From contig JAZMZK010000018.1 in NCBI GenBank assembly GCA_045585955.1, positions 25,450 through 89,449 of the forward strand: a DNA stretch of 64,000 nucleotides, in the 5' to 3' direction. The DNA is from Victivallaceae bacterium (lineage in GTDB: Bacteria > Verrucomicrobiota > Lentisphaeria > Victivallales > Victivallaceae). The translations under genes and the position numbers were made by a program. How positions within the stretch are numbered: the stretch's first letter is position 1; every line of letters starts with the position of its first letter. The notes beneath the pieces were generated by a model. The model was given only the letters and a program-made list of their open reading frames with translations, was not told the origin of the DNA and ran no database searches. This document shows, piece by piece, positions 16,232 through 49,816 of this stretch.

Positions 16232-16232
16232 T

Positions 16233-19352: not shown

Positions 19353-19418
19353 TATAACTTAAAACTCCATTTTATAAGTTGTCAATATATTATTTATATA
19401 ATATAGCACCGAAAGCAC

Positions 19419-26099: not shown

Positions 26100-26168
26100 T
26101 CAATTACCTCTTTCAATTTAGATTACGGTTGAAATTTTTCGAGAACAAAGATTTCTCGTTGTATAAAA

Positions 26169-26459
26169 TTATCTTCTACGAGCTTCCGAACGTATCAAAT
26201 CGCAAAATTCTTTACAGTTGATTCTCCCATAAATGCCAGTTTTTCCTGCCGTCATGTTTCGTATTAAACATTCTGGAACTCCTGCCTCATGCTTGAAATG
26301 TATACGATCCTCCGGTCCCCACGCACCTTGATTTTGATTATCTTCATGAATGTTGAAATTAACATTGTCAGAGCTCAGGATATACTCAATAGCAAAACGA
26401 AGTTCTTCTTCAGAATCAAAACGTACCTGTCCTTTTTTCCCAAATACTAATTTACACAT
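26169..26459 (-). CDS. Hypothetical 96-aa protein in the R-M island
   Basis: An ATG-started ORF between the nuclease and the ATPase fragment, co-directional and 13 nt from the upstream gene stop. No family was recognised. Confidence 0.5.
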   Translation of the reverse strand: MCKLVFGKKGQVRFDSEEELRFAIEYILSSDNVNFNIHEDNQNQGAWGPEDRIHFKHEAGVPECLIRNMTAGKTGIYGRINCKEFCDLIRSEARRR

Positions 26460-26472
26460 CTTATCTCCTTAA

Positions 26473-27696: not shown

Positions 27697-27714
27697 ATTC
27701 GTTGTCTTTCTCCG

Positions 27715-34856: not shown

Positions 34857-34953
34857 ACCGGAAATCCTTTCCGGCGCAAGCTTGTGCGCCCATTATGGGT
34901 ATGCCGGTGCTGAATGCACCATCTTAAAATTGTAACAAAAATGATATTCATTT

Positions 34954-35032
34954 GTCTTTCCTACGCCGGCATTACCCGTTTCAGGTTCGATGGGTTTGAT
35001 CTCAGCCGTTGTTACCTCAACAACAGCACCCC
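34954..35032 (-). promoter_or_regulatory. TPP (THI-box) riboswitch
   Basis: The minus strand reads GGGGUGCUGUUGUUGAGGUAACAACGGCUGAGAUCAAACCCAUCGAACCUGAAACGGGUAAUGCCGGCGUAGGAAAGAC. This contains the conserved CUGAGA and ACCUGA...GGGUAAUGCC..GCGUAGG elements, ~95 nt upstream of thi4. Confidence 0.9.
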
Positions 35033-35160
35033 AAGGTTACATATCTTCTAATGTAACACCATTTGCAAAAAAAATCAAATATAAAAATACATTTATGTTT
35101 GATTTTTATATCGGCAAATGTTATTTTAATGGCGATGCAAACACAAAAAAAGGATTTTTT

Positions 35161-35816: not shown

Positions 35817-36818
35817 TCAGCAAATTCTCGGCAGCAGTTCTCCGGTGGGCTGGGGCAATATGGTTTTGCCGCCAAAGGGCTGTTCGATGGTAACTTTGCC
35901 CACATTCTCCGTTACTTCGCCAATAATGGAAGCATTGCTGCTGTACGGCATAGCTTGCAGAACTTTTACGATTTCTCCGGCAACAGTCTGCGGAGCAAAG
36001 ATGACCAATCTGCCTTCGCACGCCAGATACAAGGGGTCAAGCCCCAGCATACCGCACACTCCTTTTACCGGATCAGCTACGGGTATATCGGCAGCTTTGA
36101 TATTTATACCGATTTGGCTCTGATCGCAAATTTCGTACAATACTGTGCCCACGCCGCCCCGGGTTGCATCACGGATCACATGGATATCTTTGCTGACACT
36201 CAAAATCGCTTCCACGGTTTTGCCCAGCGGTGCGCAATCGCTTGTTACATCAGCATCAATGCCGAACTCGTCACGCTCCAGCAAAATGGTGCAGCCGTGC
36301 CGCCCCACATCGCCGGAAACGATCACTGCATCCCCAACTTGAGCAATGGCTCCGGAGGTGCGGACTCCGGGCAGCAGTTCCCCTACCCCGGCAGTGGTGA
36401 TAAAGACTTTATCCACTTGCCCTTTGCCCACGACTTTGGTATCACCGGCAACGATTTTGACACCCGCTTCGGCGGCAGTTTTTGCCATAGCGGCGGCGAT
36501 TTCCTCCAAGTCGGCGACCGGGAACCCTTCCTCAATAATAAATGCACAGGTTATATATTTGGGGATCGCCCCCATACATGCTATATCGTTGACCGTACCG
36601 CAAATACTCAATTTGCCGATGTTGCCGCCGGCAAAACGCCACGGCGAAACTACAAAGCCATCAGTAGACATGGCGATCCGGTCAGCCTTTACCGGCAGAA
36701 CAGCCGCATCATCGGGGGTAAAAAGATCGTTGGCAAAATGTTTTTTGAATATCGAACCGATAAGTTCAGAGGTCTGCCGACCGCCGGAACCGTGAGCTAA
36801 TGTAATAAATTTTTCCAT
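35817..36818 (-). CDS. hypE: Hydrogenase maturation carbamoyl dehydratase HypE
   Basis: PurM-like fold with N-terminal LAHGSGG. The diagnostic C-terminal PRIC motif ends the protein. Confidence 0.93.
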   Translation of the reverse strand: MEKFITLAHGSGGRQTSELIGSIFKKHFANDLFTPDDAAVLPVKADRIAMSTDGFVVSPWRFAGGNIGKLSICGTVNDIACMGAIPKYITCAFIIEEGFPVADLEEIAAAMAKTAAEAGVKIVAGDTKVVGKGQVDKVFITTAGVGELLPGVRTSGAIAQVGDAVIVSGDVGRHGCTILLERDEFGIDADVTSDCAPLGKTVEAILSVSKDIHVIRDATRGGVGTVLYEICDQSQIGINIKAADIPVADPVKGVCGMLGLDPLYLACEGRLVIFAPQTVAGEIVKVLQAMPYSSNASIIGEVTENVGKVTIEQPFGGKTILPQPTGELLPRIC

Positions 36819-36831
36819 AATAACACCTGAT

Positions 36832-37866
36832 TTATTGACCGTATTGGTAAAAAGCCGAACAAGCTCCTTCGCCGGAAACCATGCACGCCCCCACCGGATT
36901 CATGGGCGTACAGACTTTGCCGAAGAGCGGGCAGTCGCATGGTTTGCAAATCCCTTTCAAGACTTCGCCGCAGCGGCATCCGGGGTTGCATTTGCCGTCA
37001 TCGGGAGTTAAACCAAACTTGATTACGGCATCAAATCCGCTCCATTGGCTTTTGAGTTTCATACCCGAACCTTTGATTTCGCCCAGACCGCGCCAGACGC
37101 AATCGCAAGGCTCCATCATGCTGTTGACCAGCTTTTGTGCCGCCGGATTGCCCCCGGCTTTGACTACTGAAGTATAAGCGTTATCGCAAAAAGGTTCGCC
37201 GCTTTGTGCGTATTCTACGATCATACCCAATGCTTTTATCACTGCTTCGGCAGTAAATCCGGCAACTACCCCGGATACGCCGTAATCGTTTTTGAGTTCT
37301 TCACAAAGTTTGGTGCCGATAATGGCGTGAACATGCCCCGGATAAAGAAACGCATCAGCCGAACCTTGCAGAGCCTTATATGCCTGAGGCATGGTTTTGT
37401 TGGCGGTCAGGAGAGAAAAGTTTTTTATCCCCAATGCCGCCGCCCGCTTTACAGCTATGCAAGCAGATGGGGTGGTGGTTTCAAACCCCACCGCCAGAAA
37501 AACCACCTCTTTATCCGGATTACTTGCCGCAAAGTCCACCGCATCCAATGGCGAATAAACCGTTTTGAGTTCAGCCCCCAAACTTCGGGCCTGTGCCAAG
37601 CTCATTTCGGAACCGGGCACCCGGATCAGGTCGCCAAAGGTGGCGATCACTGCATGGTGCTTGAGCGCCAGAGTTACGGCACTGTCGATGTACCCGGGGG
37701 GAGTAACGCAAACCGGACAGCCGGGCCCGGAGATAAGCTCAATATTTTTGCTCAAAAGCGACCGGATCCCCAAGCGGAAAATCTCGTGAGTGTGAGTTCC
37801 GCAAACCTCCATTATCCGCAAAGGTCTGCCGGAATAATTGCTTAATAATGATTGGTAATCACTCAT
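36832..37866 (-). CDS. hypD: Hydrogenase maturation Fe-S protein HypD
   Basis: MEVCGTHTHEI and GPGCPVCVTP motifs are present. The ATG at 37866 lies 4 nt after the hypC stop. Confidence 0.93.
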   Translation of the reverse strand: MSDYQSLLSNYSGRPLRIMEVCGTHTHEIFRLGIRSLLSKNIELISGPGCPVCVTPPGYIDSAVTLALKHHAVIATFGDLIRVPGSEMSLAQARSLGAELKTVYSPLDAVDFAASNPDKEVVFLAVGFETTTPSACIAVKRAAALGIKNFSLLTANKTMPQAYKALQGSADAFLYPGHVHAIIGTKLCEELKNDYGVSGVVAGFTAEAVIKALGMIVEYAQSGEPFCDNAYTSVVKAGGNPAAQKLVNSMMEPCDCVWRGLGEIKGSGMKLKSQWSGFDAVIKFGLTPDDGKCNPGCRCGEVLKGICKPCDCPLFGKVCTPMNPVGACMVSGEGACSAFYQYGQ

Positions 37867-37870
37867 AAAC

Positions 37871-38050
37871 TTACTCCTCATTTTCCGGAGTTATTTTAGC
37901 TATCGCCACCCCGGCGTGAACCATCACATAGTCGCCGGGCTCCAAATCGTCCAGCAGTTCAGCGGAAACCTCCCGGCGGGCACCGGAAGCATCGACTAAA
38001 GCGGTATCTTTATTGACCGCCACAACCTTGGCAGAAAGTCCAACACACAT
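37871..38050 (-). CDS. hypC: Hydrogenase maturation chaperone HypC (not in the ORF track, 59 aa)
   Basis: Hand translation gives MCVGLSAKVVAVNKDTALVDASGARREVSAELLDDLEPGDYVMVHAGVAIAKITPENEE. It has the essential N-terminal Met-Cys and the GDYVLVHAG-like motif, and sits between hypF and hypD. Confidence 0.88.
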   Translation of the reverse strand: MCVGLSAKVVAVNKDTALVDASGARREVSAELLDDLEPGDYVMVHAGVAIAKITPENEE

Positions 38051-38067
38051 AAGATAAATCCTTTATA

Positions 38068-40362
38068 TTAAAACTGTTTTATATTATAAACGCCATAAAG
38101 TGCCTGCCCCAGCGATATACCGCCATCATTGGCGGGTACCAGCTTGTGGAGCAAAACCCTGAAACCATTCTTCGAGAGCTTTTTCCGGCAAAGATCCAGC
38201 AAAAGCATATTCTGGAAACTCCCGCCGGATAATGCACACACATTCAAATTGCTTGCCCGTCTTGCCTGCAAACAGCTTGCCAAGATCATATCCGCCAAAA
38301 GTTTGTGGAAGCTGTATGCCAGAAACCCCACATCCACGCCTTTTATACGCTCATTTGCCAACCAGGTAAAAAGTTCATCAGTCGCCATAATGCCTTTTTC
38401 TGCAAAAGAGCTATCAATACCTGGCAGATCATCTTTGTTTGCTTCATACCACCTTTGGGCGGCAAACTCCAAGCTCATAGCTGCATCGCCTTCAAAGGTG
38501 GAATTGCGGGCAATGCCCAACAGGGCACTTACGCCGTCAAACAATCTGCCGACACTGGTACTGACAACGGTATTGATGTTGTTTTTTATCATTGCCGAAA
38601 GCATTTTGTATTCCAGAGAAGAACACAAATCAAGTTTTTCAGCATACTTGCCCGCTTGCTCCGGCAGATACTTTTCCAACAAACCCACCGCGATCCGCCA
38701 CCCTTCCCGGCTGGCAGCATCGCCCCCGGCTTGCGGGAAAGGTGCTATATGGGTAAAACGCTCAAACTTATCCGGAGAAGCAAGCAATATTTCGCCTCCC
38801 CAAATGGTGCTGTCGGTGCCGTAGCCGGTACCATCCATAGCAACCCCGATAACCGGATCAAGGTAGTTATTTTCTGCCATACAGCTTAATATATGGGCAT
38901 AGTGGTGCTGGATTTTCACCACATTACCGCTTAATTCTCCGGCGATGCGGGTGGTGTGATACCCCGGGTGCATATCCGAAACAGTCCGATCCACCTTGCA
39001 CTCCAACAACTCCGAAAAGAGCTTGACTGAATCCTTCAAAGCCTCGTTACTGCGAACATCTTCCATATCCCCGATATGGGGGGCTATGTAAAAAAGTTGA
39101 TCTTTAGCGATACAGAAAGCGTTTTTCAGCTCGCCGCCGATCGCCAGCACTTCGCCTTTAAGCGGCAGATCCACCTTGACCGGCAGCGGAGCAAAACCCC
39201 GGGATCGGCGGATCATGTAAGGTTCATTGTTATAAAGCCGCATCACTGAATCATCGGCACGCAAGCGGATATCCCGGTTGTGAGAAAGTATAATATCGCA
39301 AAAACTGCTGATCTCCTGCAAAGCATCCTCTTCGGTTCGGCAGATGGGGGCACCGGATACATTGCCGCTGGTCATAACTAATGTATCAGTAAAATCCACA
39401 CCATCGGGGTAATCAAAAAGCAGCATCTGCAACGGTGCATAAGGCAGCATCACTCCCAGCGTGGGATTGCCGGGAGCCAGAATATCCGGCAAGGTGCAAT
39501 CGCTTTTTTTATCCAGAAGCAAGATCGGTTTTTCGCAGCCATCCAGCCATGAAAGAGCTTTTTCGCTTAAAATACACTCTTTTCTTACCGTATCAACATT
39601 GTTCATCATCACCGCAAAAGGCTTGCGGGGGCGGTGTTTGAGTTCCCGCAAACGGTTCACGGCTTCAATATTCCTTGCATCGCAAGCCAGATGAAACCCG
39701 CCGATGCCTTTGATGGCAGCTATCCTGCCTTGCATAAGGAGCTTCCGGCACTCGGTAATGGCTGCACCTCCCCGCAAATTTGAACCCAATATATAAACTT
39801 CCGGGCCGCAATCATTGCAGCAAACCGGCTGGGCATCATAACGGCGGCTGGCAAGGGAGTAATACTCTTTTTCGCACGCCTGACACATGGGAAAATGTTT
39901 CATGCTCGTCCGTTCCCGGTCGTAAGGCAACGCCTCCAGAATGGTCAAACGGGGACCGCAAGCCGTGCAGTTTATAAAACTGTGCAAATACCGCCGGTCA
40001 GCGGGGTCAAACAGCTCTTTGCGGCACTGGTGACAAGTTGCAATATCAGGCGGTATAAATATTGCCCCTTTATCCGCTTGGCTTTCCAATATGGAAAAGT
40101 CTTCAAAAACTTCAAGTTCAACAACTTGTTCTTTTATATCAACAATATTTGCCCGCTCCGGAGCTTCAGCAGCCAAAGCGTTGCGGAAATTCTGCAAATC
40201 CTCATCACTGCCTTGAGCCACTACCTCCACAAAGCTGCCGCGGTTGATAACTTTGCCGGTAATGCGGTGAGCCAACGCAATGCGGTGGACAAAGGGGCGG
40301 AACCCCACGCCCTGCACCACGCCGTAAATATTGTATATAACGCTTTTGACCAAATTTGCCAT
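38068..40362 (-). CDS. hypF: Carbamoyltransferase HypF
   Basis: It has the acylphosphatase motif VQGVGFRPFV, two CxxC-x18-CxxC zinc fingers (CHQCRKE...CTACGPR; CQACEKE...CNDCGPE), and YrdC-like and Kae1-like domains. The ATG directly abuts the TGA of the upstream gene. Confidence 0.95.
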   Translation of the reverse strand: MANLVKSVIYNIYGVVQGVGFRPFVHRIALAHRITGKVINRGSFVEVVAQGSDEDLQNFRNALAAEAPERANIVDIKEQVVELEVFEDFSILESQADKGAIFIPPDIATCHQCRKELFDPADRRYLHSFINCTACGPRLTILEALPYDRERTSMKHFPMCQACEKEYYSLASRRYDAQPVCCNDCGPEVYILGSNLRGGAAITECRKLLMQGRIAAIKGIGGFHLACDARNIEAVNRLRELKHRPRKPFAVMMNNVDTVRKECILSEKALSWLDGCEKPILLLDKKSDCTLPDILAPGNPTLGVMLPYAPLQMLLFDYPDGVDFTDTLVMTSGNVSGAPICRTEEDALQEISSFCDIILSHNRDIRLRADDSVMRLYNNEPYMIRRSRGFAPLPVKVDLPLKGEVLAIGGELKNAFCIAKDQLFYIAPHIGDMEDVRSNEALKDSVKLFSELLECKVDRTVSDMHPGYHTTRIAGELSGNVVKIQHHYAHILSCMAENNYLDPVIGVAMDGTGYGTDSTIWGGEILLASPDKFERFTHIAPFPQAGGDAASREGWRIAVGLLEKYLPEQAGKYAEKLDLCSSLEYKMLSAMIKNNINTVVSTSVGRLFDGVSALLGIARNSTFEGDAAMSLEFAAQRWYEANKDDLPGIDSSFAEKGIMATDELFTWLANERIKGVDVGFLAYSFHKLLADMILASCLQARRASNLNVCALSGGSFQNMLLLDLCRKKLSKNGFRVLLHKLVPANDGGISLGQALYGVYNIKQF

Positions 40363-41394
40363 TCAAAGCTCCTCAAGCAGTTTTCCGGAAACCGCAAAAT
40401 GGGGGAAATCCACCCAGCTGCCCTTATATATATTATGCACGATCCGCTCAAATGCGCTGTCAGCAAAGACCACATCAAAGGTGTTTGTTTCAAAAACTTT
40501 GCGGAAATCTTCTTCGCTGTTGAACTTGAAATCAGCGTCTTTATTTACTGCATTAAAGAAACTGCCGCAAACAGCTTCCGCATCGGGGAAAGTGCTTGAT
40601 ATGCGTTTTTTCAGCTCCAACGCCGCAAAGTTCTGGTGGACTATCAACACTCTTTTGCCGGATAGATCGCTAATTTCAAGCTCATCGGCAATGCCGGGAG
40701 CTGCGATTTCGTATGGTGTGTTGAAAGATTTTTTCAAATATTCCGCAGCTTTCAATCCGGCGGGCGATACCACAATATTTTTTTCTACTTCCGAAGCCTT
40801 TGCCACATCGTCTAAAGTTCCATTCATACCGTAAATACGCACATCGCCTGTCAAATGTTTTCTGATGACCTTTGCCGCCTCAAGGGTGCTGTAATCCAGC
40901 GGTGTGGCACCCAGCACCCCAATCGCTCCGGTTTTGACCGGACGCGCTTCCACTGCAAAGGTTTTGAATAGCGTTGTATAGGCTTGCGAGGCACCAACTT
41001 CATAATACATTGTACCGCTTGCCTCCAACGCCATAACCGGTATATCCAACGCCTTTTGGCACATTCTCTGCAAGGCAGGAAAATCGGTAGCGATCACTGC
41101 CGGTACCGGCGAACCGATTACCGCCATAAATTTGCGGCTGCTGATTTTTGCCGCGGCAATAAGTTTATCTGCCAACAGCCGATCCCGCCCCAGAATGGCA
41201 TCCATATCCCGCAAACCGGCACTGAACAAAGCACTTTTGCGGGTAAACCAGCGGGGTTCGTCAAAGCCGCAAATATTACCGGTGCAGCCCCCGGCATCGC
41301 AAATCACGATCACGCCATCAAGCTCGAACAACACCGAAACCGCCCCCGCCAGATCGGGTGCAAAGGGCGAAAGATATTTCAAAAGACTTTTCAT
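40363..41394 (-). CDS. Nitrogenase component-1-type (Oxidored_nitro) subunit, beta-like, triad 2
   Basis: 343 aa. It is a paralog of 43420-44580; compare LAGAVSVLFELDGVIVICDAGGCTGNICGFDEPRWF with [36 protein letters not shown]. It has the general NifK/N/BchB-like Rossmann triplet layout. Confidence 0.75.
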   Translation of the reverse strand: MKSLLKYLSPFAPDLAGAVSVLFELDGVIVICDAGGCTGNICGFDEPRWFTRKSALFSAGLRDMDAILGRDRLLADKLIAAAKISSRKFMAVIGSPVPAVIATDFPALQRMCQKALDIPVMALEASGTMYYEVGASQAYTTLFKTFAVEARPVKTGAIGVLGATPLDYSTLEAAKVIRKHLTGDVRIYGMNGTLDDVAKASEVEKNIVVSPAGLKAAEYLKKSFNTPYEIAAPGIADELEISDLSGKRVLIVHQNFAALELKKRISSTFPDAEAVCGSFFNAVNKDADFKFNSEEDFRKVFETNTFDVVFADSAFERIVHNIYKGSWVDFPHFAVSGKLLEEL

Positions 41395-42677
41395 TGCAGC
41401 ACCTCCCCCATAGCAGAAAATAAATCATTGACCGCCTGATAGCCAAACTGCCGCACTTCGGAGTTCCATTTGATCCCCGGCTTGTCGGCGTGATAATACA
41501 TGGCATCCTGCCCGATGGCAAAATCGATTTTTGCCTCTCTCTTATCATAATAAAGCATGGTGGGCGACAAGTTGCTGTAAACTTTGGTTGCAGGCGAAAT
41601 GGCAGCGAGCTTCTTCAAGTAAACAAAGTTGCTTTCGCCGATGGTTCCGTAAATTTCATTTACTTGCAAGCCCATTTCCGCCAGCGAGAGAGCCAGCTCA
41701 AAACTGTCGGCATTGAGCCATTCACCCACGGCAAAACGCAAATTACCGAACTTGTCTTTGAAGTTTTTGATTATTTGGGCACTTTCCGAATAAAACTTTT
41801 CATCGTCAAATGCAACATTCAACGCTTGAGCCAACGCCATATATTGAGCGTGGATCTTATCTATCCGGTGAAGATTATTAAGCTCAATAAAGGGTATCTC
41901 CAAATTTTTGCTCATATCCTGCGCAGCATATCTCGCTTCGCTGTTGAGCACCAGATTAAAGTTGGCTTCTGCCATAAGTTCGTACTCTTCAAAGCTCTGC
42001 ATACGGGATAACTCCCGGATGTTTTTTATTCCCACACTCTGCAAAAGTTTATATAGTTCGCACTCATCCGCCAGCGGCGAAAAGTAGCCCAACAAATTGC
42101 AGGCATTGCTCTTTTTGGGGCGTTTTTTCAATAAACTGTAAACGCTCCGACGCACCGATGCCATAGGCGGCAGCCGCCCTTCCCGGGTCAAAGCATACAT
42201 GTAACAGGGCACGACCGGCACCCCGGCAGCTTCTGAACACTTGCGGCAGACCCGATCCATATCCGTACCCAGCAAAGCATCCACACATGTTATGCAAATC
42301 ATCACCGCTTTGGGCGGTACCGGTCGGCTGGAACAAATCTCTTTGACCGCTTCGGGTATGCGGTTCAAGTGGCGGCCGGTAACAATATCAGTATCGTCCT
42401 GCAAAAGATAGTAGAATCGGTCGGCATACTTCCGGTCGCGGCCCAATGCAGCGGTATTTCTGCCGCAGCACCCCGGCGACACTAAAAGCATCACACTTTC
42501 CGGAACCGCCAGCCCCGCCCGCTTGACCCCGAAACCTTGAGCCCCGGGGGAGTTAAAAGCCAGAGTTGCCGGAGAACTGTAAACCAGATTTTTGCCGGAT
42601 AACAATTCTGACGGGATATTGTTTTTTCCCAATTCAGCCAATTCTTTGGCAGTTATATAAAAAGCTGTATTACTCAT
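41391..42677 (-). CDS. Nitrogenase component-1-type (Oxidored_nitro) subunit, alpha-like, triad 2
   Basis: 428 aa with Cys motifs [10 protein letters not shown] and [13 protein letters not shown]. It is a paralog of 44577-45911. Both junctions are ATGA overlaps. Confidence 0.75.
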
Positions 42678-43432
42678 GATTCACCTTCGTCGATAAGCAT
42701 TTGAGCCAATGCCAGAAATTTTTGGCTCACCGGCAGATCTTTATTGCCTTCGATCACTGTTTTGCCCATATCTTCATAATGGATTATATCGTTGGAGCGG
42801 GGTATATCGGCAACGATCTCCAAGTTATTATCGTCGGCAAACTTGCGAACTTTTTCTTCCTCATTTTCCACAGCACGGCGATTCATTACTATACCCCGCA
42901 CAGCGGCATAGTTGCGGTCTGCAAAGTTTTTTACAGCATTGTTGATGTTGTTGGCAGCATAAAGTGCCATTTTTTCGCCGGAAGTAACGATCAATACTTT
43001 CTCGGCATATCCCTCCCGGATGGGGGCGGCAAATCCGCCGCAAACCACATCGCCCAGCACATCGTACAAAACAAAGTCGGGCTGATATGTTTCAAAAAGT
43101 TCCAGATCTTCCAGCAAGCTGAAAGTGGTAATAATGCCCCTGCCCGCACAGCCTAGCCCCGGAGTGGGTCCACCGGTTTCGATGCATAAAATGTTGCCGA
43201 AACCAACTTTACTGATCTCTCCGATCGTTTCCGGCTCCCGGTCGAAATCTCTTATAAAATTCATTACCGGCGTCAAAGGTTCGCCCCTCAGCAGATTTAC
43301 TGTGGAGTCCGCTTTGGGGTCGCAGCCGATCTGGATGACCCGTTTGCCCAGCGTTGCCAAGGCTGCTGCCAGATTGCTGGTAACGGTGGATTTGCCGATA
43401 CCGCCCTTGCCGTAAATTGCTATTTTCTGCAT
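42674..43432 (-). CDS. NifH/BchL/CfbC-family ATPase Fe protein-like, copy 2
   Basis: It has Walker [11 protein letters not shown] and switch I CDPKADST. The [4Fe-4S] ligand contexts GLGCAGRGI and [12 protein letters not shown] are both present. The ATG at 43432 was chosen over the TTG at 43447. Confidence 0.9.
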
Positions 43433-44580
43433 ATCAAACTCTTCCAATCTATATATTTATCAATCAAATTCAATCTTGCTTTATGATAGCACCGCCCGGA
43501 AAAGGCTTCGTGGGGCAACGCTATATATTTTTTGCCGGAGGGGACAATGGGTAAATACATATTGTCGCAAACGATCAATTCGGCGCTGGCAAATTCTCCG
43601 GCAATAAGTTTTTCCTGACCGACAGCTTTATCGGTGCCGGTCAACAACTTTTTATCCCCTGCCAAAGGGTCAATGATGCGGCAGCTTACACCAAGTTCGC
43701 TCTCCAACGCCTTGGCAAGAGTGCCGGAATACACGCTTTCGCCAATGATCAGGCATTGAGCATTTTCGCCGCTCTCCCGGCACGCTGACCAGTAAGAATT
43801 TACTTTACTCTGCCGGACACTCGCTAATTCTTCAAGCAAATCATTTGCCGCCGATTTACCAACCGGCACGCCGCAAACAAAGGGTATATTGTATTTTTTA
43901 TACATGTATTGAGCCAGCGGCAAACCGCTGTTGGCGATCACCAGATTTACTTCGGCATTAACTGAATAACGCAACTCCTCAAGTGTATTATTCATCGCCC
44001 AGGAAGCAAGCACTTTGTAATCAAACTTTTGCAAAAACTCTACAATACTTTCCACATTGCCGTTGATGGAGAAATCCAGCGGAGTAGCCCCCAGTATATT
44101 CACACTTTGCGGAATGATCTTTTCAGCTTTTTCCGGCAGAAACCGCTCTGCCAGAAGTTTCCACGCCTTGGCCGCCCCGACATGATAATGCTCCATACCC
44201 GAAGTCGGCACCGCAAAACATGGTATGTTGGTTTGTGCTTCGATTGAGCAAGCAACAGCACGCATATCCGTACCCACCATCAAAGGTATGGGCGAATTGC
44301 ATAATGCTATAAATTCGGGCTGAAGCGTTCCGGCAGAACGCACCACATCCTCAATAAATTTATCATCATTGCCGCAAACCATATCCAGTTCGGTCAATGC
44401 TGATATATAGACCATGCTATCCGAATTGAACCAGCGGGGTTCATCGTGGGTGGCATAAGTGGAGTTGCAGCCGGAGGCATCGTGCACAATGGTCATGCCG
44501 CCCAGCTCAAAAAGTGCTGAACAAACGCCCGCAGTATCTGCCGCATAGCAGGAGATGATTTTTGCGTAATTATTACTCAT
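43420..44580 (-). CDS. Nitrogenase component-1-type (Oxidored_nitro) subunit, beta-like, triad 1
   Basis: 386 aa from the ATG at 44580 (ATGA overlap with the upstream stop). Motifs are [10 protein letters not shown]...DEPRW and [15 protein letters not shown]. Confidence 0.75.
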
Positions 44581-45911
44581 AAACAGCTTTCGCACCCCCA
44601 TCCTTTGAGCTGGATAACTTTTTCCGTATCGCTCAAAGTGTTTTTAGCGTTCACCATAGCCTTGCACATTTGCGTTATGCCGTCAAAACCGTACCAGCCG
44701 CCGCCGGAAACGATATTGACCAAATGCCGACTGCCGGTAAAGCAAGCTGCTTTCTGCCCGATGGCAAGGTATTCATCGCCGGAACCGGGTGTTTTGACCG
44801 CAAACCGCATTGCCGGGTGCAGTGTGGGAGAGATCAATAGTTTGGGGCAATGGCTTTGCAACCACTCAAAGTCCGCTTTTTCTTCCGGAATAACCACATC
44901 GCTGTAAATGCGTTCAACATTAAAGTCATGCTCCAGAAGCAACCTTGCCAGCGAGAGATTCCGCAAAGTTGCCGTATAATCTATGGCTATGGGCATAGAG
45001 CCAATGACCTTGCGGGCTTCAGCCAATGTTCTGCGGGCTTCGCTTTCGGCTTGAGAAAAATCCAATTTTATATTCAATTCTTCGCTTAAAATCCGGTAGT
45101 TTTCTGCGATTTCTTCAAAACTGTAACTTAAAGGCAAATGCAAAAATTTCCGCCGCAGCCGCTGACACAAAAACTCATTGCCCGCTTTTGCCGTGGGGTA
45201 ATAAGATATATTGCAGAAACTTTCACTCATAGATAAATATTCGTCATAATCTTGGCACGCAGCTATATCTTTGACCTTGAAACCATTATTTTTGAGCATA
45301 ATTATCAATTCGCTGGATTCTGCCGTTACCCGGTCGTTGCCGATAATGTTTATGCTTTTATTATCCGCCACAGCGTTTTCACGCAAAGGTGCATAGAGCT
45401 GTTTACGCATAAAGGCATCCGGCGTCAAGCCCGATTTCCGCATAGTGGGGTGCATCAAACATTCCACAAAGTCGATTGCGGGGAAACGCTTTTGCAATTC
45501 ATCGTAAATCGCCCGGGTATCGCACCCGGCAAAAAGCTGTATACAGCTTAAAAAGACCAATACCGCCCGGGGCTTTACACTCATTTCCTCAAGAATAGCA
45601 CTTATGCCTTCAATAGCATTGCTTTCAAGAGTGCCGTCAAATAGATCGCTTTCTTTGACCGTAACAAAACTCATGCGCTCCATGGCGTTCATCTCGGCGG
45701 CAGTCAATATCACACCCCGCAAACAACCTTGAGCACAGACAAATATCTGGTGGGAGCGGGGTATAAGCATCCCGGTATGCACAATGTTCCACATGCCCCG
45801 GGAGGGAGCATTGAACTCCAGCTCCGAAGCAAAAAGCTGGGGAAACTTTGCCGCTTTTACCGGCAGAGCAAAAAATTCAGCATCAACTTTTTTTCCTACA
45901 CTTTTAAGCAT
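44577..45911 (-). CDS. Nitrogenase component-1-type (Oxidored_nitro) subunit, alpha-like, triad 1
   Basis: 444 aa with Cys motifs VCAQGCLRGV and FLSCIQLFAGCD. Its start overlaps the NifH-like copy 1 stop by 8 nt. Confidence 0.75.
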   Translation of the reverse strand: MLKSVGKKVDAEFFALPVKAAKFPQLFASELEFNAPSRGMWNIVHTGMLIPRSHQIFVCAQGCLRGVILTAAEMNAMERMSFVTVKESDLFDGTLESNAIEGISAILEEMSVKPRAVLVFLSCIQLFAGCDTRAIYDELQKRFPAIDFVECLMHPTMRKSGLTPDAFMRKQLYAPLRENAVADNKSINIIGNDRVTAESSELIIMLKNNGFKVKDIAACQDYDEYLSMSESFCNISYYPTAKAGNEFLCQRLRRKFLHLPLSYSFEEIAENYRILSEELNIKLDFSQAESEARRTLAEARKVIGSMPIAIDYTATLRNLSLARLLLEHDFNVERIYSDVVIPEEKADFEWLQSHCPKLLISPTLHPAMRFAVKTPGSGDEYLAIGQKAACFTGSRHLVNIVSGGGWYGFDGITQMCKAMVNAKNTLSDTEKVIQLKGWGCESCL

Positions 45912-46659
45912 TGTTCTGCTCCATGATCTTTTCTGCCAGCGACCGGTAAGCCTTGGCTATATCACTTGCCGGATAAGCACTCAAAAGAGTTTTCTGCATT
46001 TCTTCAGCTTCGGCAACCAAACTGCTGCGGGGAATTATGCCGGTGATCAGACTTTCAAAATCCTCTGCCAGTGCTGCAACCTTATTGGCTTCATCCTTGA
46101 CGACCCGGCAATTCAAGATAAAACCGCCCAGCTCTGCATAGTTGCGGCTCTGGAAATTCTTCAACGCCATGGCGATATTTGCCGCAGCATAAATGGACAT
46201 GTTTTCGCCGGAAGTAATAATGTATACTTTATCAGCGTAACCATTACGCATAGGCATGGCAAAGCCGCCGCAAACCACATCGCCCAGCACATCGTACAAA
46301 ACAACATCGGGCTTAATCGCAGAGTAAGCACCTTTGCTTTCCAGTTTTTCCAGAGCGTTGATGATCCCCCTGCCCGCACAGCCCATGCCGGGAACCGGAC
46401 CACCGGCTTCCACACAAGCGATATTCTTTTCGCCGAACGACACCATATCATGCCACGAAAAATCATCGCCGTATTTGCGGATAAGTTCCAAAACCGGCGT
46501 GGGGCGTCTGCCCCCCAGATGCGACATGGTGGAGTCCGCTTTGGGGTCGCAGCCGATTTGCATAACTTGCAGACCTTTTTCCGCAAGTGCATAAGCTAAA
46601 TTGCTGACAGTAGTGGATTTACCGATACCGCCTTTACCGTAAAAAGCCAATTTCAACAT
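45904..46659 (-). CDS. NifH/BchL/CfbC-family ATPase Fe protein-like, copy 1
   Basis: It has Walker [11 protein letters not shown] and switch I CDPKADST, plus the cluster ligand contexts GMGCAGRGI and [14 protein letters not shown]. Its start overlaps the HydE stop by 7 nt. Confidence 0.9.
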   Translation of the reverse strand: MLKLAFYGKGGIGKSTTVSNLAYALAEKGLQVMQIGCDPKADSTMSHLGGRRPTPVLELIRKYGDDFSWHDMVSFGEKNIACVEAGGPVPGMGCAGRGIINALEKLESKGAYSAIKPDVVLYDVLGDVVCGGFAMPMRNGYADKVYIITSGENMSIYAAANIAMALKNFQSRNYAELGGFILNCRVVKDEANKVAALAEDFESLITGIIPRSSLVAEAEEMQKTLLSAYPASDIAKAYRSLAEKIMEQNNA

Positions 46660-47702
46660 GTTTTTTCACTCCAATCGCCCCGGCTGAACTCAAAAGCATA
46701 GCCGATAGTGTTCAATTCTTCACTTAAAGCTTTGACCGCCTCCGCAACCGGCTTATCTGCCGAAAGCTTGTTGTTGTACAATAGATAATTATTCTGCACA
46801 TCTTTGGGCGTCAAATTGGGCATGATCACATTGGCACCGGCTTGGATGCCCAGCACTCGCCCGCCGGATTTCAGCGAACCCAACGCCGTGGTCGCCGGAA
46901 GCAAGACCTTTTCCAACATGATGCGAGTCAAGCTCAAAAGCATCAAAGTTTGCGCCACACTGCTTGCCGGATAACTGGCAAAGGGGGTATCTTTGTGAGG
47001 GATAAAAGGCCCGATGCCCACCATTTCCGGCTGCAAACCGTGCATAAAAAGCATATCTTTTGCCAGCGTTTGGGGCGTTTGGAACGGGCTCCCGGTCATA
47101 ATGCCGCAACCGGTCTGATAGCCCAAACTTTTCAAATTCTGCAAACACTCCATGCGATTACTTAAACTCATATATTCCGGGTGCATTTTCCGGTAATGCC
47201 CTTCATCAGCCGTTTCGTGCCGCAAAAGATAGCGGTCAGCTCCGGCTTCACGCAAAAGTTTGTATTCAGCCAAGCTCAATTCCCCCAGCGAAAGCGTTAC
47301 CGCACAGCCGGGAAATTCACTTTTCAAACGCCGTACCAATTGGCAAAGCCGGTCAGCACAACAACCCACTTCGCCACTTTGCAGAACAAAAGTCTTGATA
47401 TTATTTTGCCAGCCCGTGCGGCAGCACTCAACGATCAGATCGTCGCTCATATTGTAGCGTTGAACCAAAGTGTTGCTTTTGCGGATGCCGCAATAAAAAC
47501 AATCGTTGCTGCAAACATTGGAAAATTCCACAATGCCCCGGATAAAGACCTTTCTGCCGTAATGTTTTTGAGCGATCGCCTGCGCTTTTTCAGCAGCAAA
47601 GAGCCGATCCGCTTGCGAGTAAGAACTCAAAAGCGTCACCCATTCGGCAAAGCCAAGCTGTTTTTCAGCATCAAGTTTTTCAATCAATCCACGGCAAACC
47701 AT
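46653..47702 (-). CDS. hydE: [FeFe]-hydrogenase maturase HydE-type radical SAM protein
   Basis: The radical SAM motif is EFSNVCSNDCFYCGIR. Blocks TFVLQSGE, AVTLSLGE, EAGADRYLLRHETA, VGIGPFIPHKDTP, LPATTALG and GANVIMPNLTP match Thermotoga HydE as I remember it, nearly block for block. Confidence 0.85.
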   Translation of the reverse strand: MVCRGLIEKLDAEKQLGFAEWVTLLSSYSQADRLFAAEKAQAIAQKHYGRKVFIRGIVEFSNVCSNDCFYCGIRKSNTLVQRYNMSDDLIVECCRTGWQNNIKTFVLQSGEVGCCADRLCQLVRRLKSEFPGCAVTLSLGELSLAEYKLLREAGADRYLLRHETADEGHYRKMHPEYMSLSNRMECLQNLKSLGYQTGCGIMTGSPFQTPQTLAKDMLFMHGLQPEMVGIGPFIPHKDTPFASYPASSVAQTLMLLSLTRIMLEKVLLPATTALGSLKSGGRVLGIQAGANVIMPNLTPKDVQNNYLLYNNKLSADKPVAEAVKALSEELNTIGYAFEFSRGDWSEKTC

Positions 47703-47760
47703 TGTAAAATCTCACAATAAAGAGTTAAAATTGAAAAAAATGAATTTTGAATTGAATGAT

Positions 47761-47849
47761 TTTTCGGAGATGAGATGTGAGCGGTAGTTTTTTCCGGCTA
47801 CTCGTAGAGTAACCGGGAAAAACGCTCCGCTTGCAGATCGCTCCGAAAA
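47761..47849. promoter_or_regulatory. ~90-nt imperfect inverted repeat in the operon leader/promoter region
   Basis: The outer 9-bp arms are perfect (ttttcggag at 47761-47769, ctccgaaaa at 47841-47849). Inner pairings are gagcg/cgctc, ttttt(t)ccgg/ccgg(g)aaaaa and actc-gta-gagt at the apex. Confidence 0.5.
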
Positions 47850-47885
47850 CATTCAAGGCATTTTCATTTTTTTTAATTTTGACTC

Positions 47886-47928
47886 AACAAAAAGACCGTA
47901 TTCCTGACATACAGACAGCAATACGGTC
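47886..47928 (-). terminator. Rho-independent terminator after the TM1266-like gene
   Basis: On the minus strand, gaccgtatt pairs with aatacggtc (9-bp stem, 17-nt loop) and is followed by tttttgttg. Confidence 0.7.
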
Positions 47929-48019
47929 AAAATAACGACTTATTATTATGCTTCTGCCTCAAAGTTCCCTGCCGGGAAGTTTTCAGCGTCAGGATAAATA
48001 TTCAATATACAATTTTATT

Positions 48020-48268
48020 TCAAACTGCCGAACAGACGGCTTTGGCAGTCACGCCCTCAAGTCTGCCCAGTTTACCGGCTATGGCGTTGATCTTATCGGT
48101 TGGAGCATCCAGCACGATATTGATTATGCTGATCTTGCGTTCCCGATAAGGCAAACCCATTCTGCCGATGATATATTCGCCGAACTCGTGCAGTATGGCA
48201 TTGACCGCTGCGGCGGACTCCATATTTTCAACGATTATTGCCACTACGGCAACACGGTTTTCAGCCAT
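48020..48268 (-). CDS. TM1266-type ACT-like protein (putative iron-only hydrogenase system regulator family)
   Basis: 82 aa from the ATG at 48268 (GAGGTG RBS). RVAVVAIIVENMESAAAVNAILHEFGEYIIGRMGLPYRERKISIINIVLDAPTDKINAIAGKLGRLEGVTAKAV parallels the Thermotoga TM1266 sequence pattern as I recall it. Confidence 0.7.
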   Translation of the reverse strand: MAENRVAVVAIIVENMESAAAVNAILHEFGEYIIGRMGLPYRERKISIINIVLDAPTDKINAIAGKLGRLEGVTAKAVCSAV

Positions 48269-48331
48269 ACAACACCTCGCAAATATACCACTTTGACTAT
48301 TATAGCACAACAAACTGTTTATGCAAACAGT

Positions 48332-49816
48332 TTACTTCAAAAAATCCAACACAAATTCTGCCATATCGGATTTTTCAATGCAATTCTTGTGCCGCACTTC
48401 GCAACCCTTCAAATTGGCAAGCGGTGCCGGGATCGGGGTATTGGAAAGTTTGGCAAGCATTTCCAACTGGGCAAAGCCGTCAGCAGGAATAGCTTCGGCA
48501 GTCAAAGCCGGCAATACCGATGCAGCAAACTTATAGGGCGAAGCAGTGGAAGCCACCACCGTCAATGTATTGTCGCCGGTAGCTTTGCGGTACTGTTCAA
48601 GCACATTTGCCGCAACCGCAGTGTGGGTATCGGCAAGATAGTTGTACTCTTTGAAAAGTTTGCCGATAGTTTCTTCGGTACCCTTTTCGTCGCAATATCC
48701 GCCGAAAAATTCGCTCTGCAATTTTGCCAGCACATCTTTGGGCAGCTCGTAACGGCCTTTTTCCGCCAGCTCTTTCATAAGTTTGGCAGTAAGTTCAGCA
48801 TCGTTGCCGGCAGCGTGGAAGATCATGCGTTCCAAATTGCTGGAAATCAATATATCCATGGAAGGACTGCTGGTGGTGTAAAACTCCCGGTTGCGGTCAT
48901 AGACCCCGGTTTCCAGAAAATCGGTCAAAACTTTGTTGCGGTTGGAGGCACAAATAAGTTTGTCGATAGGTACACCCATTTGCTTGGCATAGTAAGCAGC
49001 CAATATATCGCCGAAGTTGCCGGTGGGCACAGCTACATTGAACTTTTCGCCCGCTTTCAACGCACCTTTCTTCAAAAGATCGCAAGCTGCCGACACATAA
49101 TAGACGATCTGGGGAACCAGACGGCCGAAGTTGATGCTGTTGGCAGAAGAAAATTCCATATTCTTCTTATCCAGAGCTTCCCGGATGGCATCGTCGGTAA
49201 AGATTTTTTTGACTCCGCTCTGGGCATCGTCAAAGTTGCCTTCGATACCGCAAACCGAAACATTGTCGCCAACTTGGGTGATCATCTGCAATTTCTGCAT
49301 ATCCGACACCCCGTTTTCCGGGAAGAACACCACGATCCTGGTGTTGGGTACATCGGCAAACCCCGCCAATGCCGCCTTGCCGGTATCGCCGGAAGTGGCT
49401 ACCAATATAACGATGGTTCTGCCGGGAGCAGTCTTATTGGCAGCTTTGACCAGCAAAAAGGGCAGCAGCTGCAATGCCATATCTTTAAAAGCACAAGTAG
49501 GCCCGTGCCAGAGTTCCAGCATTTCAGTACCGGCAGTTACTTCGGCAAGGGGAGCGGGGTCGTTGTTATCAAAAGTATTGGTGTAAGCACCTTTTACGCA
49601 ATAATCCAGCTCTTCATCTGTATAGTCAGTCAAATAGAGTTTGAGCACTTCTTTGGCACGGCCAATATAATCCATATCAGCAAGTGCCATAAGTTTTTCG
49701 TAAGATAACTGCGGGAAACTGCAAGGCACAAAAAGCCCACCATCAGCAGCAATACCCCGGGTAATAGCGGCAGCAGAACTGACACTCTGCACACTTCTGG
49801 TACTGGTAAACAACAT
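48332..49816 (-). CDS. thrC: Threonine synthase (long form)
   Basis: It starts MLFTSTRS, has GGLFVP, and has the PLP-lysine context GPTCAFKDMALQ. Length is 494 aa. Confidence 0.92.
   Translation of the reverse strand: MLFTSTRSVQSVSSAAAITRGIAADGGLFVPCSFPQLSYEKLMALADMDYIGRAKEVLKLYLTDYTDEELDYCVKGAYTNTFDNNDPAPLAEVTAGTEMLELWHGPTCAFKDMALQLLPFLLVKAANKTAPGRTIVILVATSGDTGKAALAGFADVPNTRIVVFFPENGVSDMQKLQMITQVGDNVSVCGIEGNFDDAQSGVKKIFTDDAIREALDKKNMEFSSANSINFGRLVPQIVYYVSAACDLLKKGALKAGEKFNVAVPTGNFGDILAAYYAKQMGVPIDKLICASNRNKVLTDFLETGVYDRNREFYTTSSPSMDILISSNLERMIFHAAGNDAELTAKLMKELAEKGRYELPKDVLAKLQSEFFGGYCDEKGTEETIGKLFKEYNYLADTHTAVAANVLEQYRKATGDNTLTVVASTASPYKFAASVLPALTAEAIPADGFAQLEMLAKLSNTPIPAPLANLKGCEVRHKNCIEKSDMAEFVLDFLK

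Follow-up and report, generated by a model that had tools for sequence, protein, structure and literature searches.

Gene content of the cluster

We analyzed a 64-kb window, that is, the whole 64,000-nt stretch of Victivallaceae DNA introduced above (contig JAZMZK010000018.1, positions 25,450 to 89,449; coordinates below count from its first letter). Open reading frame (ORF) listing combined with profile searches identified 12 minus-strand genes that form a single tight cluster between 35817 and 48313. At its core lie two tandem triads of nitrogenase-like (NFL) proteins, each made of a NifH-like Fe protein (H1, H2), an alpha-like subunit (a1, a2) and a beta-like subunit (b1, b2), and these are flanked by genes of the two hydrogenase maturation systems. 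The order is TM1266-like, hydE, H1-a1-b1, H2-a2-b2, hypF-hypC-hypD-hypE, as follows:

48020..48313, minus strand: TM1266-like gene, small ACT/NikR-C-like protein (TIGR03959, 112.8 bits; cut-off 60.8)
46653..47702, minus strand: hydE, radical S-adenosylmethionine (SAM) [FeFe]-hydrogenase H-cluster maturase homologue, 349 aa (TIGR03956, 472 bits; cut-off 254.6)
45904..46659, minus strand: H1, NifH-like ATP-dependent Fe protein of triad 1, 251 aa (Fer4_NifH, E 2.9e-84)
44577..45911, minus strand: a1, divergent component-1 alpha-like subunit, 444 aa (Oxidored_nitro, E 1.9e-15)
43420..44580, minus strand: b1, beta-like subunit of triad 1, 386 aa from the ATGA-overlap start (Oxidored_nitro, E 1.1e-29)
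42674..43447, minus strand: H2, NifH-like Fe protein of triad 2, 257 aa from a TTG start (Fer4_NifH, E 1.6e-86)
41391..42677, minus strand: a2, NifE/NifD-like alpha subunit of triad 2, 428 aa (Oxidored_nitro, E 1.2e-30)
40363..41394, minus strand: b2, short beta-like subunit of triad 2, 343 aa (Oxidored_nitro, E 8.6e-17)
38068..40362, minus strand: hypF, carbamoyltransferase, 764 aa (TIGR00143, 752.9 bits; cut-off 466)
37871..38050, minus strand: hypC, chaperone of a distinct sub-type, 59 aa (TIGR00074, 56.6 bits; cut-off 48)
36832..37881, minus strand: hypD, Fe-S scaffold, 349 aa (TIGR00075, 396.7 bits; cut-off 192.8)
35817..36818, minus strand: hypE, final gene of the cluster, 333 aa (TIGR02124, 407.6 bits; cut-off 251.6)
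34941-35043, minus strand: thiamine pyrophosphate (TPP) riboswitch at the head of a separate thi operon, thi4/thiE/thiD/thiC (Rfam scan, 64.6 bits)

From hydE to hypE, neighboring genes either overlap by 4-28 nt or are separated by 0-17 nt (hydE and H1 share 7 nt, and the b2 stop is followed by the hypF start with a gap of 0 nt), which indicates a single transcription unit. The first gene of the cluster stands apart: a 317-nt non-coding spacer (47703-48019) without an Rfam match separates the TM1266-like gene from hydE. Its likely start is the ATG at 48268, giving a protein of 82 aa, and a promoter-like site (TTTGCA-17-TATAAT with an upstream TG, 48327-48299) lies ahead of it. Alternative starts exist for two further genes, as the b1 ORF reaches 44601 (393 aa if read from the farthest ATG) and H2 could begin at an ATG at 43432 (252 aa). 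Downstream, the end of the cluster is marked by a plus-strand HAD hydrolase gene and the TPP riboswitch.

HypF, HypD and HypE pass equivalog cut-offs and HypC a subfamily cut-off, while the runner-up model for HydE, PylB, reached 131.7 bits. The expected motifs are visible in the translations: CSNDCFYC, the CxxxCxxC radical-SAM motif, in HydE; CGTHTHE, GPGCPVC, GFETT and PGHV in HypD; and a C-terminal ...LLPRIC (PRIC motif) in HypE. The domain set of HypF is complete (acylphosphatase, two zf-HYPF, YrdC and Kae1-like). HypC is peculiar. The canonical N-terminal motif of this protein is MC(L/I)x(I/V)P, and here the N-terminus reads MCVGLSAKV. Its N-terminal two-thirds are near-invariant across four phyla, MCVG(L/I)(S/A)A(K/R), and in about 45 loci the sub-type follows the pattern MCVGLSA(K/R)V...DASGA.R.VSA.L..DLEPGDYVMVHAG.AIA(K/R)I, with Ser at the canonical Pro6. 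The 64-kb window contains no hydrogenase, HydG, HydF, HypA/HypB or NifB gene.

Relationships and conserved residues of the triad proteins

That an H-alpha-beta triad is duplicated in tandem had been recorded in a first-pass annotation of this DNA, and the six ORFs indeed have the positions and sizes given there, all on the minus strand. H1 and H2 are 49% identical (E 4e-85), b1 and b2 33% (E 7e-44), and a1 and a2 22% (E 3e-29, with a profile-profile E of 1.8e-38 across 395 columns in hhalign). Similarity between alpha and beta subunits is weak (3e-8 for a2/b2 and 4e-7 for a2/b1) and is not significant for a1 against either beta (E 0.07-0.4). Since the paralogues are strong within each subunit type and the alpha-beta matches weak, the whole H-alpha-beta unit was duplicated together. 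Orthologues in other phyla are 39-82% identical to the window proteins, and as both paralogous triads are found across those phyla, the duplication is older than the spread of the cluster. H2 is the most conserved of the six, with 74-82% identity to its orthologues in other phyla, and triad 2 as a whole is more conserved than triad 1. The triads are thus a real unit, but the annotation overlooked the genes on either side of them, hydE upstream and hypFCDE downstream, and it is this flanking context that dominates any functional inference.

Judged by profile scores, the six triad proteins lie outside every curated Nif/Vnf/Anf/Bch/Cfb family. H1 gave 301.5 bits with the nifH model (cut-off 394) and 300.6 bits with CfbC (cut-off 402); H2 gave 297.4 and 286.8 bits, again under both cut-offs. 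Scores were 175-196 bits with BchL (cut-off 345) and 149-196 bits with BchX (cut-off 331). The best PDB matches of H1 are NifH proteins at ~215-226 bits, against ~130 bits for BchL, and the NifH matches of H2 lie at ~203-230 bits. For the alpha and beta subunits, the best NifE score was 65.8 bits against a cut-off of 505 (TIGR01283), followed by nifD (at most 50 against 654), BchB (at most 47 against 490), nifK (24 against 427), CfbD (TIGR03282, 18.6 against 268) and NifN (TIGR01285, 16 against 327); all curated cut-offs for NifD/K/E/N, VnfD, AnfD, BchB and CfbD, which range from 268 to 874, were missed. When PDB sequences were searched, a1 returned no significant match even as a 20-sequence profile. 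The a2 profile matched the nitrogenase alpha chain and NifE (5e-13 to 8e-13), the b1 profile NifE/NifD/BchB/NifN (1e-7 to 6e-23) and the b2 profile NifD/NifE (7e-9 to 5e-8). Chains of the Mar structure 9fmg were weaker matches than NifE/NifD, from 1e-3 (a2, b2) to 6e-13 (b1). On the curated cut-offs and the PDB similarity we rejected membership in the Cfb, Bch or Mar families: neither triad falls within one of these characterized clades, a placement that had been named beforehand as speaking against the annotation's proposal.

AlphaFold2 models were obtained with a predicted local distance difference test (pLDDT) of 84 and a predicted template-modeling score (pTM) of 0.86 for a1, whose C-terminal tail is of low confidence, and with values of 87 and 0.86 for a2. 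Foldseek against the PDB matched the a1 model to NifK/VnfK/NifN/NifE (TM ~0.6, 10-16% identity) and the a2 model to NifK/NifD/NifE (TM 0.6-0.7). The predicted structures have the generic three-domain component-1 fold without a preferred neighbor, at 10-18% identity; a specific structural neighbor was thus considered and rejected, as these generic matches were the only ones returned.

The P-loop and cluster-cysteine motifs are found in the translations of both NifH-like copies, and with all ATPase and cluster motifs kept both Fe proteins look functional, in agreement with the first reading of the sequence. Conservation was assessed from 34-70 orthologues per subunit, and positions were mapped through HMMER and hhalign alignments. 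In H1, Cys 37, 82, 94 and 130 are 98-100% conserved. In a1, C59, C63 and C123 are conserved at 100%, C151 at 93%, C219 at 96%, C440 at 97% and C443 at 90%. Invariant residues of a2 are C70, C71, H103, C128, C131 and C144, joined by H396 (98-100%) and C158 (96%). The b1 subunit has His33 and Cys38 at 100% and His45 at 96% (386-aa numbering), and in b2 C32, C37, C42, H253 and H332 are invariant. The paired motifs picked out earlier, VCAQGC and FLSC..AGC in a1 and SPGCC and ICITC in a2, are all present.

These cysteines include those expected at the subunit interface. The a2 residue C131 aligns with NifE C124/NifD C154 and has a1 C123 as its equivalent; a1 C63 corresponds to a2 C71 and, by its spacing to a DxxFGG-type motif, to the position of NifE C62/NifD C88. 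The columns of a1 C63 and C123 do not vary among a1, a2 and the out-family, which holds the closest a1 relatives (see below). On the beta side, HDASGC of b1 aligns with NifN HGAQGC44, which places b1 C38 and b2 C37 at NifN C44. Each alpha/beta pair therefore keeps Cys at positions which, in NifEN and in dark-operative protochlorophyllide oxidoreductase (DPOR), bind the inter-subunit [4Fe-4S] cluster. Relative to the canonical P-cluster positions, two are kept in alpha and one in beta, and 3-4 of the six Cys remain. The first canonical alpha Cys (NifE C37/NifD C62) is replaced, within NAPxRG in a1 and NSPGAQG in a2 (Gly/Arg or Gln). Extra conserved Cys occur beside the inter-subunit site, namely a1 C59 (the out-family shares the CxxxC), a2 C70/C128 and b2 C32/C42, and one of them could substitute for the ligand at the NifE C37 position. 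By these alignments the inter-subunit Fe-S site is retained and counts four Cys for a1b1 and as many as seven for a2b2, so that the triads are not non-catalytic relics that have lost their cluster ligands. The annotation had further contrasted LCNSP in b1 with IGSP in b2. Both motifs are there, but we rejected the reading of this difference as the loss of a canonical ligand from b2, because the b1 Cys is conserved in only 64% of 67 orthologues and sits 3 residues before the position aligned with NifD Cys154.

No residue of a1 or a2 aligned with the ligands of the iron-molybdenum cofactor (FeMoco) in the HMMER and a1/a2 profile alignments. The a2 subunit has Asn and Gln at the nitrogenase CHRS Cys site, a1 has neither Cys nor His in the corresponding columns, and no invariant His maps to NifD position 442, so there is no equivalent of Cys275/His442. 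Other candidate ligands are conserved. C151 of a1 corresponds to a2 C158, and in both alphas it is followed by a strongly conserved flexible loop, which in a2 aligns with the NifD Gln191/His195 loop over the M-cluster and of which the a1 loop is the counterpart. C219 of a1 matches a Cys in at least 90% of a2 sequences, yet the window a2 has Met at residue 226; this Cys is therefore dispensable in at least this lineage. Finally, the C-terminal tail of a1, ...KG(W/L)GCESC(L/I) or more generally GCxSC(L/I), is 90-97% conserved. This C-terminal CxxC is limited to the a1 family associated with HydE and TM1266, being absent from a2 and from 11 aligned out-family alphas.

Distribution, variants and neighborhoods

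Relatives of a1 number more than 3,500 at 90% clustering. At 50% identity they form 802 representative clusters (E <= 1e-3), 224 of them with E <= 1e-30, and 304 of ~185,579 GTDB species genomes encode one. From these 304 positive species we drew 80 genome loci for a comparison of gene order, 42 of which had enough flanking sequence. Carriers belong to Lentisphaerota, Clostridia, Synergistaceae and Spirochaetaceae and include the cultured Intestinibacter bartlettii DSM 16795, Clostridium aromativorans, Hominimerdicola aceti and strain BL-3 (Clostridiaceae). The window a1 is 97% identical to proteins of Victivallaceae and Lentisphaeria gut metagenome-assembled genomes (MAGs; loci L004 and L005), and the gene order of the window recurs in BL-3, in a Spirochaetaceae MAG and in the majority of the 80 loci. 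Phyla are intermixed in the a1 tree, indicating horizontal transfer.

Two arrangements were seen. In 30 of the 42 flanked loci the full order is present, with a2 and HypF and without an importer. Both triads are co-linear in every one of these 30 triad-2 loci, across four phyla, and triad 2 is always accompanied by HypFCDE. The other 12 loci are "short": they lack a2, b2, H2 and Hyp and instead carry a periplasmic binding protein (Peripla_BP_2), a FecCD permease and an ATP-binding cassette (ABC) ATPase fused to a TM1266 domain, while retaining TM1266, usually HydE, and triad 1. Since the short loci form one clade in the a1 tree, the swap of importer for module 2 counts as approximately one evolutionary event; the arrangement has since been maintained over deep divergence. 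That there are two modules was confirmed by the permuted order of a metagenomic contig (L084:9243-21293), on which H2-a2-b2-hypFCDE comes first and TM1266-H1-a1-b1 second, with no hydE between TM1266 and H1. The cluster thus consists of two separable modules, module 1 being TM1266, usually HydE, and H1-a1-b1, and module 2 being H2-a2-b2 and HypFCDE.

Natural fusions of H1 to a1 of ~700 aa occur in Clostridium relatives (L001:10001-12103, a 698-aa ORF in L020, P0028 and P0063), and imply a fixed 1:1 association of Fe protein and alpha subunit. Five loci of Ruminococcus type have a conserved 133-aa ORF between b2 and hypF (L045:15534-15935, also L042) that matches neither Pfam nor NCBIfam. The nearest a1 out-family (27-30% identity, E ~1e-50) has an H-a-b triad followed by Peripla_BP_2, FecCD and ABC ATPase genes (L087:8240-14441, P0454), and its loci L087/L088 contain no HydE, TM1266 or Hyp. 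A DtxR-type iron-dependent repressor is encoded ~5 kb upstream of the L087 triad.

The maturases of [FeFe] hydrogenases accompany module 1. Among the 42 flanked loci a TM1266-like gene or domain is adjacent in 42, HydE in 34, HydF in 17 and an aspartase-like gene in 2; in several loci HydF, TM1266 and the aspartase-like gene lie directly upstream. HydG is adjacent in none of the ~80 loci, and a CxxxCxxC scan of these loci and the window turned up no further relevant radical-SAM gene. Neither HydA L1-L3 motifs nor a [NiFe] large-subunit motif could be found in the ORFs of the ~80 loci or the 64-kb window. Large neighboring ORFs taken up as candidate hydrogenases or HydG proved to be MATE transporters, a sigma factor, malic enzyme, LysA and the aspartase-like protein. 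A riboswitch might have served as a clue to the ligand, but when the window and ten related loci were scanned with Rfam, none (e.g. cobalamin) lay upstream of the clusters, and the matches were confined to unrelated T-box, lysine, guanidine-I and TPP elements and tRNAs. The ABC ATPase of the short loci (L060:7052-8149 and its equivalents) has a C-terminal TM1266-like domain (3e-19) that resembles the substrate-sensing regulatory domains of MetN/ModC. By this analogy there are hints that TM1266 proteins may bind a transported or cofactor-related small molecule.

The Hyp set, in turn, accompanies module 2, and HypA and HypB are absent from the loci inspected as well as from the window. For strain BL-3 a curated published table lists only [FeFe]-type hydrogenases, with Ech left blank and no [NiFe] enzyme, and its sole HydE and TM1266 entries are those of the cluster. 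BL-3 nevertheless carries the full cluster, including hypFCDE. A survey of clostridial acetogens likewise records HypCDEF without HypAB in several species, sets that may or may not belong to clusters of this kind. The Hyp set of the cluster therefore looks dedicated to it, the evidence from BL-3 being suggestive.

The remainder of the window holds housekeeping genes, restriction-modification genes and a phage remnant. At its left end, an ORF at 2653-3801 (minus strand) with an SU10 major-capsid-protein Pfam match (5e-47), together with its neighbors up to ~4400, suggests a prophage or phage remnant. A low-GC island at 26000-30306 (36% against ~46%) encodes an 863-aa C5-cytosine methylase/Eco57I-like fusion (27715-30306, minus strand) and a 407-aa ORF without a Pfam match (26473-27696, minus strand). 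A second restriction-modification-like gene, with N6-methylase and TaqI_C domains, lies at 13484-15181 (minus strand). Long plus-strand ORFs at 47948-49708, 16185-19406 and 35955-36800 are antisense to thrC, ileS and hypE, respectively, and are artefacts of the listing, not genes.

Known counterparts and possible function

A cluster of this type was already noted briefly in 2012. In the passage that deals with it, Dos Santos et al. (2012, BMC Genomics 13:162; PMC3464626) report linked double NifHEN-like copies associated with hydrogenase maturation in gut Firmicutes, such as Coprococcus catus GD/7 as well as Dorea longicatena DSM 13814. They note two conserved Cys in alpha (NifD C88/NifE C62 and C154/C124) and one in beta (NifN C44), mention nifH-nifE-like fusions, devote one sentence to function, suggesting a role in hydrogenase maturation, and propose that metal transport is coupled to cofactor assembly. 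Compared by description only, the window shares with these clusters the two linked copies, the maturase association, the 2+1 Cys pattern and the fusions in relatives, and differs in its host, a member of the Victivallaceae (Lentisphaerota). Our search from a Lachnospiraceae a1 gave more than 4,400 relatives, many of them labelled Lachnospiraceae; neither C. catus nor D. longicatena is named among the 120 matches listed. The 2012 passage, the sole mention that a full-text literature search found, seems to say nothing of the link to HydE, TM1266 and HydF, of the division into two modules or of the importer variant (PMC3464626). The search returned no study dedicated to the cluster, which also goes unmentioned in a 2026 Chem Rev review of NFL systems. 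What is added here is the instance in Lentisphaerota, the linkage to HydE, TM1266 and HydF, the division into two modules with the importer variant, the size of the family, a map of its ligands and the distinct HypC.

Several known systems resemble parts of the cluster. With NifH, NifDK and NifEN it has in common the ATP-dependent Fe protein, the three-domain alpha/beta fold, a paralogous enzyme/scaffold pair in one operon, the inter-subunit Cys at NifE C62/C124 and NifN C44, and a radical-SAM feeder (NifB there, HydE here). Unlike that system, it has no ligands for FeMoco or the L-cluster, no NifB, NifV or NifX and no first alpha Cys; a separate Fe protein goes with each component-1 pair, much shorter subunits are encoded, and the accessories are Hyp and Hyd instead of Nif. 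The Hyp proteins match the HypCDEF pathway of [NiFe] hydrogenases in passing the cut-offs and in the HypC N-terminal Cys, the HypD CGxHxH/GPGCPVC/GFETT motifs and the HypE PRIC, but HypA, HypB, an endopeptidase and a large subunit are missing from the window and the loci examined, and the Hyp genes are joined to a NifHEN-like triad. In the same way, HydE, HydF and TM1266 pass the equivalog cut-offs of the HydE/F/G pathway (Thermotoga-type hyd operons), whose aspartate-ammonia-lyase-like gene appears in some loci, whereas HydG and HydA are never adjacent and the maturase genes share an operon with NFL genes. Operons of an NFL triad with a type-II ABC importer, with examples in C. botulinum, Alkaliphilus oremlandii, Methanocorpusculum labreanum and D. 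hafniense (Dos Santos et al.; PMC3464626, in the part concerned), hold the closest a1 relatives, the alpha CxxxC...C pattern and the importer type of the short variant, but differ in lacking HydE, TM1266 and Hyp (L087/L088) and the C-terminal CxxC.

The ATP-dependent NFL reductases without FeMoco ligands, namely CfbCD, DPOR and chlorophyllide oxidoreductase (COR), MarBHDK and Group VI Nfl, are alike in this respect, and H1 and H2 score about as high with CfbC as with NifH. CfbD, however, is a single-subunit protein with a methanogen context, unlike the heteromeric alpha/beta proteins of bacterial hosts seen here; the sulfur-metabolism genes of MarBHDK/IsrHDK (Group IV-C/IV-F) are not conserved beside the cluster, and the 9fmg match is the weaker one; and for DPOR/COR there are no tetrapyrrole genes in the window or the loci. 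The paper on Group VI Nfl gives B12-radical-SAM/HemN contexts in Elusimicrobia, Myxococcales and Gracilibacteria and a NifH clade sister to Group V, in contrast to the window, where HydE is the only radical-SAM gene of the neighborhood and the hosts differ.

In our reading, the locus is neither a nitrogenase nor a tetrapyrrole reductase. The account that we favor, tentatively and with somewhat less than even confidence, is that of a two-module NFL metallocofactor system with the logic of NifEN and NifDK, assembly and recipient, in which an Fe-CO/CN organometallic cofactor is built or used. It is drawn from gene context and conserved residues: module 2 is always co-inherited, more conserved and more NifE-like, and module 1 is the universal core with family-specific candidate ligands. 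It is established Hyp chemistry that carbamoyl phosphate is the source from which HypF and HypE generate cyanide, and that an Fe(CN)2CO unit is put together by HypC and HypD. Module 2 would accordingly be an assembly line in which HypF and HypE supply cyanide, HypC and HypD provide the Fe(CN)2CO unit, and the NifEN-like a2b2, with its own ATP-driven reductase H2, serves as the scaffold on which this unit is reduced or elaborated. Module 1 would be the recipient, with a1b1 as the terminal enzyme or a second-stage scaffold. H1 may pass electrons to a1b1 through the inter-subunit [4Fe-4S] cluster (a1 C59/C63/C123 and b1 C38), and an organometallic iron site could be held by a1 C151, C219 and the flexible C-terminal CxxC. 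HydE, with HydF where present, would contribute radical-SAM processing of an Fe-Cys-CO/CN synthon, and TM1266 might sense or carry a small ligand. The BtuCDF/FecCD-type importer of the short clade would stand in for the biosynthetic module 2; its presence there points to import, in place of synthesis, of an identical or equivalent metal species. Whether a1b1 is, more specifically, the catalytic component of an unrecognized class of ATP-driven metalloenzyme, with an Fe-CO/CN cofactor from a hybrid pathway of HypCDEF, HydE(HydF) and a2b2/H2 that is made in-house in full loci or imported in short ones, we regard as possible but rather doubtful; such a protein would combine the architecture of a nitrogenase with ligands of the hydrogenase type.

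Several points weigh against this account. Its functional claims rest on gene neighborhood and conserved residues, and we know of no Fe-CO/CN species demonstrated on any NFL protein. The complementarity of importer and module 2 amounts to about one event, for which reason we gave it less weight than strong independent evidence would deserve, and genomes of the short type could carry triad 2 and Hyp elsewhere. HydE and HydF may be the housekeeping [FeFe] maturases of the genome, HydE being a full equivalog and the only one listed for BL-3. Finally, the out-family triad with its importer and without HydE or Hyp shows that this branch can work without CO/CN machinery.

The main rival takes up the role in hydrogenase maturation suggested by Dos Santos et al. 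(2012; PMC3464626, in the passage concerned): the NFL proteins would be accessory factors, NifH/NifEN-like scaffolds or reductases, for conventional [FeFe] and/or [NiFe] hydrogenases encoded elsewhere. In a sharper form, HypFCDE and triad 2 would furnish a tyrosine-independent Fe-CO/CN synthon that replaces or supplements HydG. With HydE a full-scoring equivalog (472 against 254.6 bits), with HydF, TM1266 and the aspartase-like gene of hyd maturation operons directly upstream in several loci, and with HydG never adjacent though HydE (34/42) and HydF (17/42) often are, this is quite plausible; BL-3, moreover, has several [FeFe] hydrogenases, and its sole listed HydE and TM1266 are those of the cluster. 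We nonetheless think it unlikely to be the right one. [FeFe] hydrogenases are matured by HydEFG alone, in vitro and in most organisms, and the a1 family occurs in only 304 of the ~185,579 species genomes. No hydrogenase structural gene is adjacent in the ~80 loci or present in the window, two full ATP-dependent triads, with strong purifying selection on all six proteins, would cost a great deal for an optional helper, and a1 carries conserved candidate cofactor ligands of its own.

The first-pass annotation had proposed that the triads act as sequential reductases on one organic substrate or tetrapyrrole-type precursor, in the manner of DPOR followed by COR or of CfbCD; Hyp and HydE would then be separate. 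That the two triads are coupled holds, given their co-linearity in 30 of 30 triad-2 loci. Sequential reduction of one substrate fits less well, because triad 1 occurs without triad 2 in a whole clade (12/42 loci) and triad 2 is always found with HypFCDE; of the two tandem uses that the annotation had considered, an enzyme with its scaffold is a better fit than DPOR then COR. The CfbC scores of H1 and H2 (301 and 287 bits), close to their NifH scores, the Cys pattern of two in alpha and one in beta, which resembles that of single-[4Fe-4S] NFL reductases, and the tie of the short variant and the out-family to binding proteins of the BtuF/IsdE/FhuD class (corrinoid, haem and siderophore import) would all suit such reductases. 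Yet none of the ~80 loci has tetrapyrrole or substrate-pathway genes, no riboswitch precedes the clusters, the CfbD, BchN/B and BchY/Z models were missed by a wide margin, and a hypFCDE linkage kept through inter-phylum transfer and permutation is hard to see as coincidence. We consider this proposal improbable.

A slim chance is also given to an import-coupled processor of metal chelates, in which triad-1-type enzymes reduce an imported complex and release or remodel its metal, the full cluster being derived and Hyp/HydE supplying or repairing Fe-S or iron. The nearest a1 relatives do lie in NifH-a-b-PBP-FecCD-ABC operons (PBP, periplasmic binding protein), the short clade retains this importer, whose ATPase bears a TM1266 sensor domain, a DtxR-type regulator is found near one out-family locus, and the coupling of metal transport to cofactor assembly has been proposed (Dos Santos et al., PMC3464626, same passage). 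This leaves unexplained, however, why the importer-less majority has an Fe(CN)2CO-building set and a NifEN-like scaffold, as well as the HydE linkage and the a1-specific C-terminal CxxC; like sequential reduction, it sits less well with Hyp being so strictly linked. An N2-reducing nitrogenase, genuine though unusual, with a NifEN-like scaffold can be dismissed, as the annotation had also argued: the intact Fe proteins and the order H-D-K-like then H-E-N-like superficially recall nifHDK and nifEN, but FeMoco ligands are absent (no Cys275/His442 equivalent), no more than 3-4 of the six Cys positions of the P-cluster remain, NifB is missing from the window and the loci, the NifD/K/E/N models gave 16-66 bits against cut-offs of 327-654, with Nif/Vnf/Anf scores generally far below cut-off, and the subunits are 50-180 residues shorter than NifD/NifK.

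The classic routes to complex iron cofactors, by nitrogenase-like enzymes and by the two systems of hydrogenase maturation, have so far been treated separately. Here these worlds meet in a single operon, of which there are thousands of metagenomic variants; among gut and rumen anaerobes it has been both conserved and passed on horizontally. There is a substantial chance that the system hides new cofactor chemistry, and the existence of cultured carriers makes the locus directly testable. If the proteins merely aid ordinary hydrogenases, the accepted minimal maturation schemes would still change. If, on the other hand, the products of Hyp and HydE reach the NFL proteins, a new organometallic cofactor or maturation route, possibly independent of HydG, would be at hand, and one NFL clade would gain a function, such clades being what the 2026 review calls the main open problem of the field.

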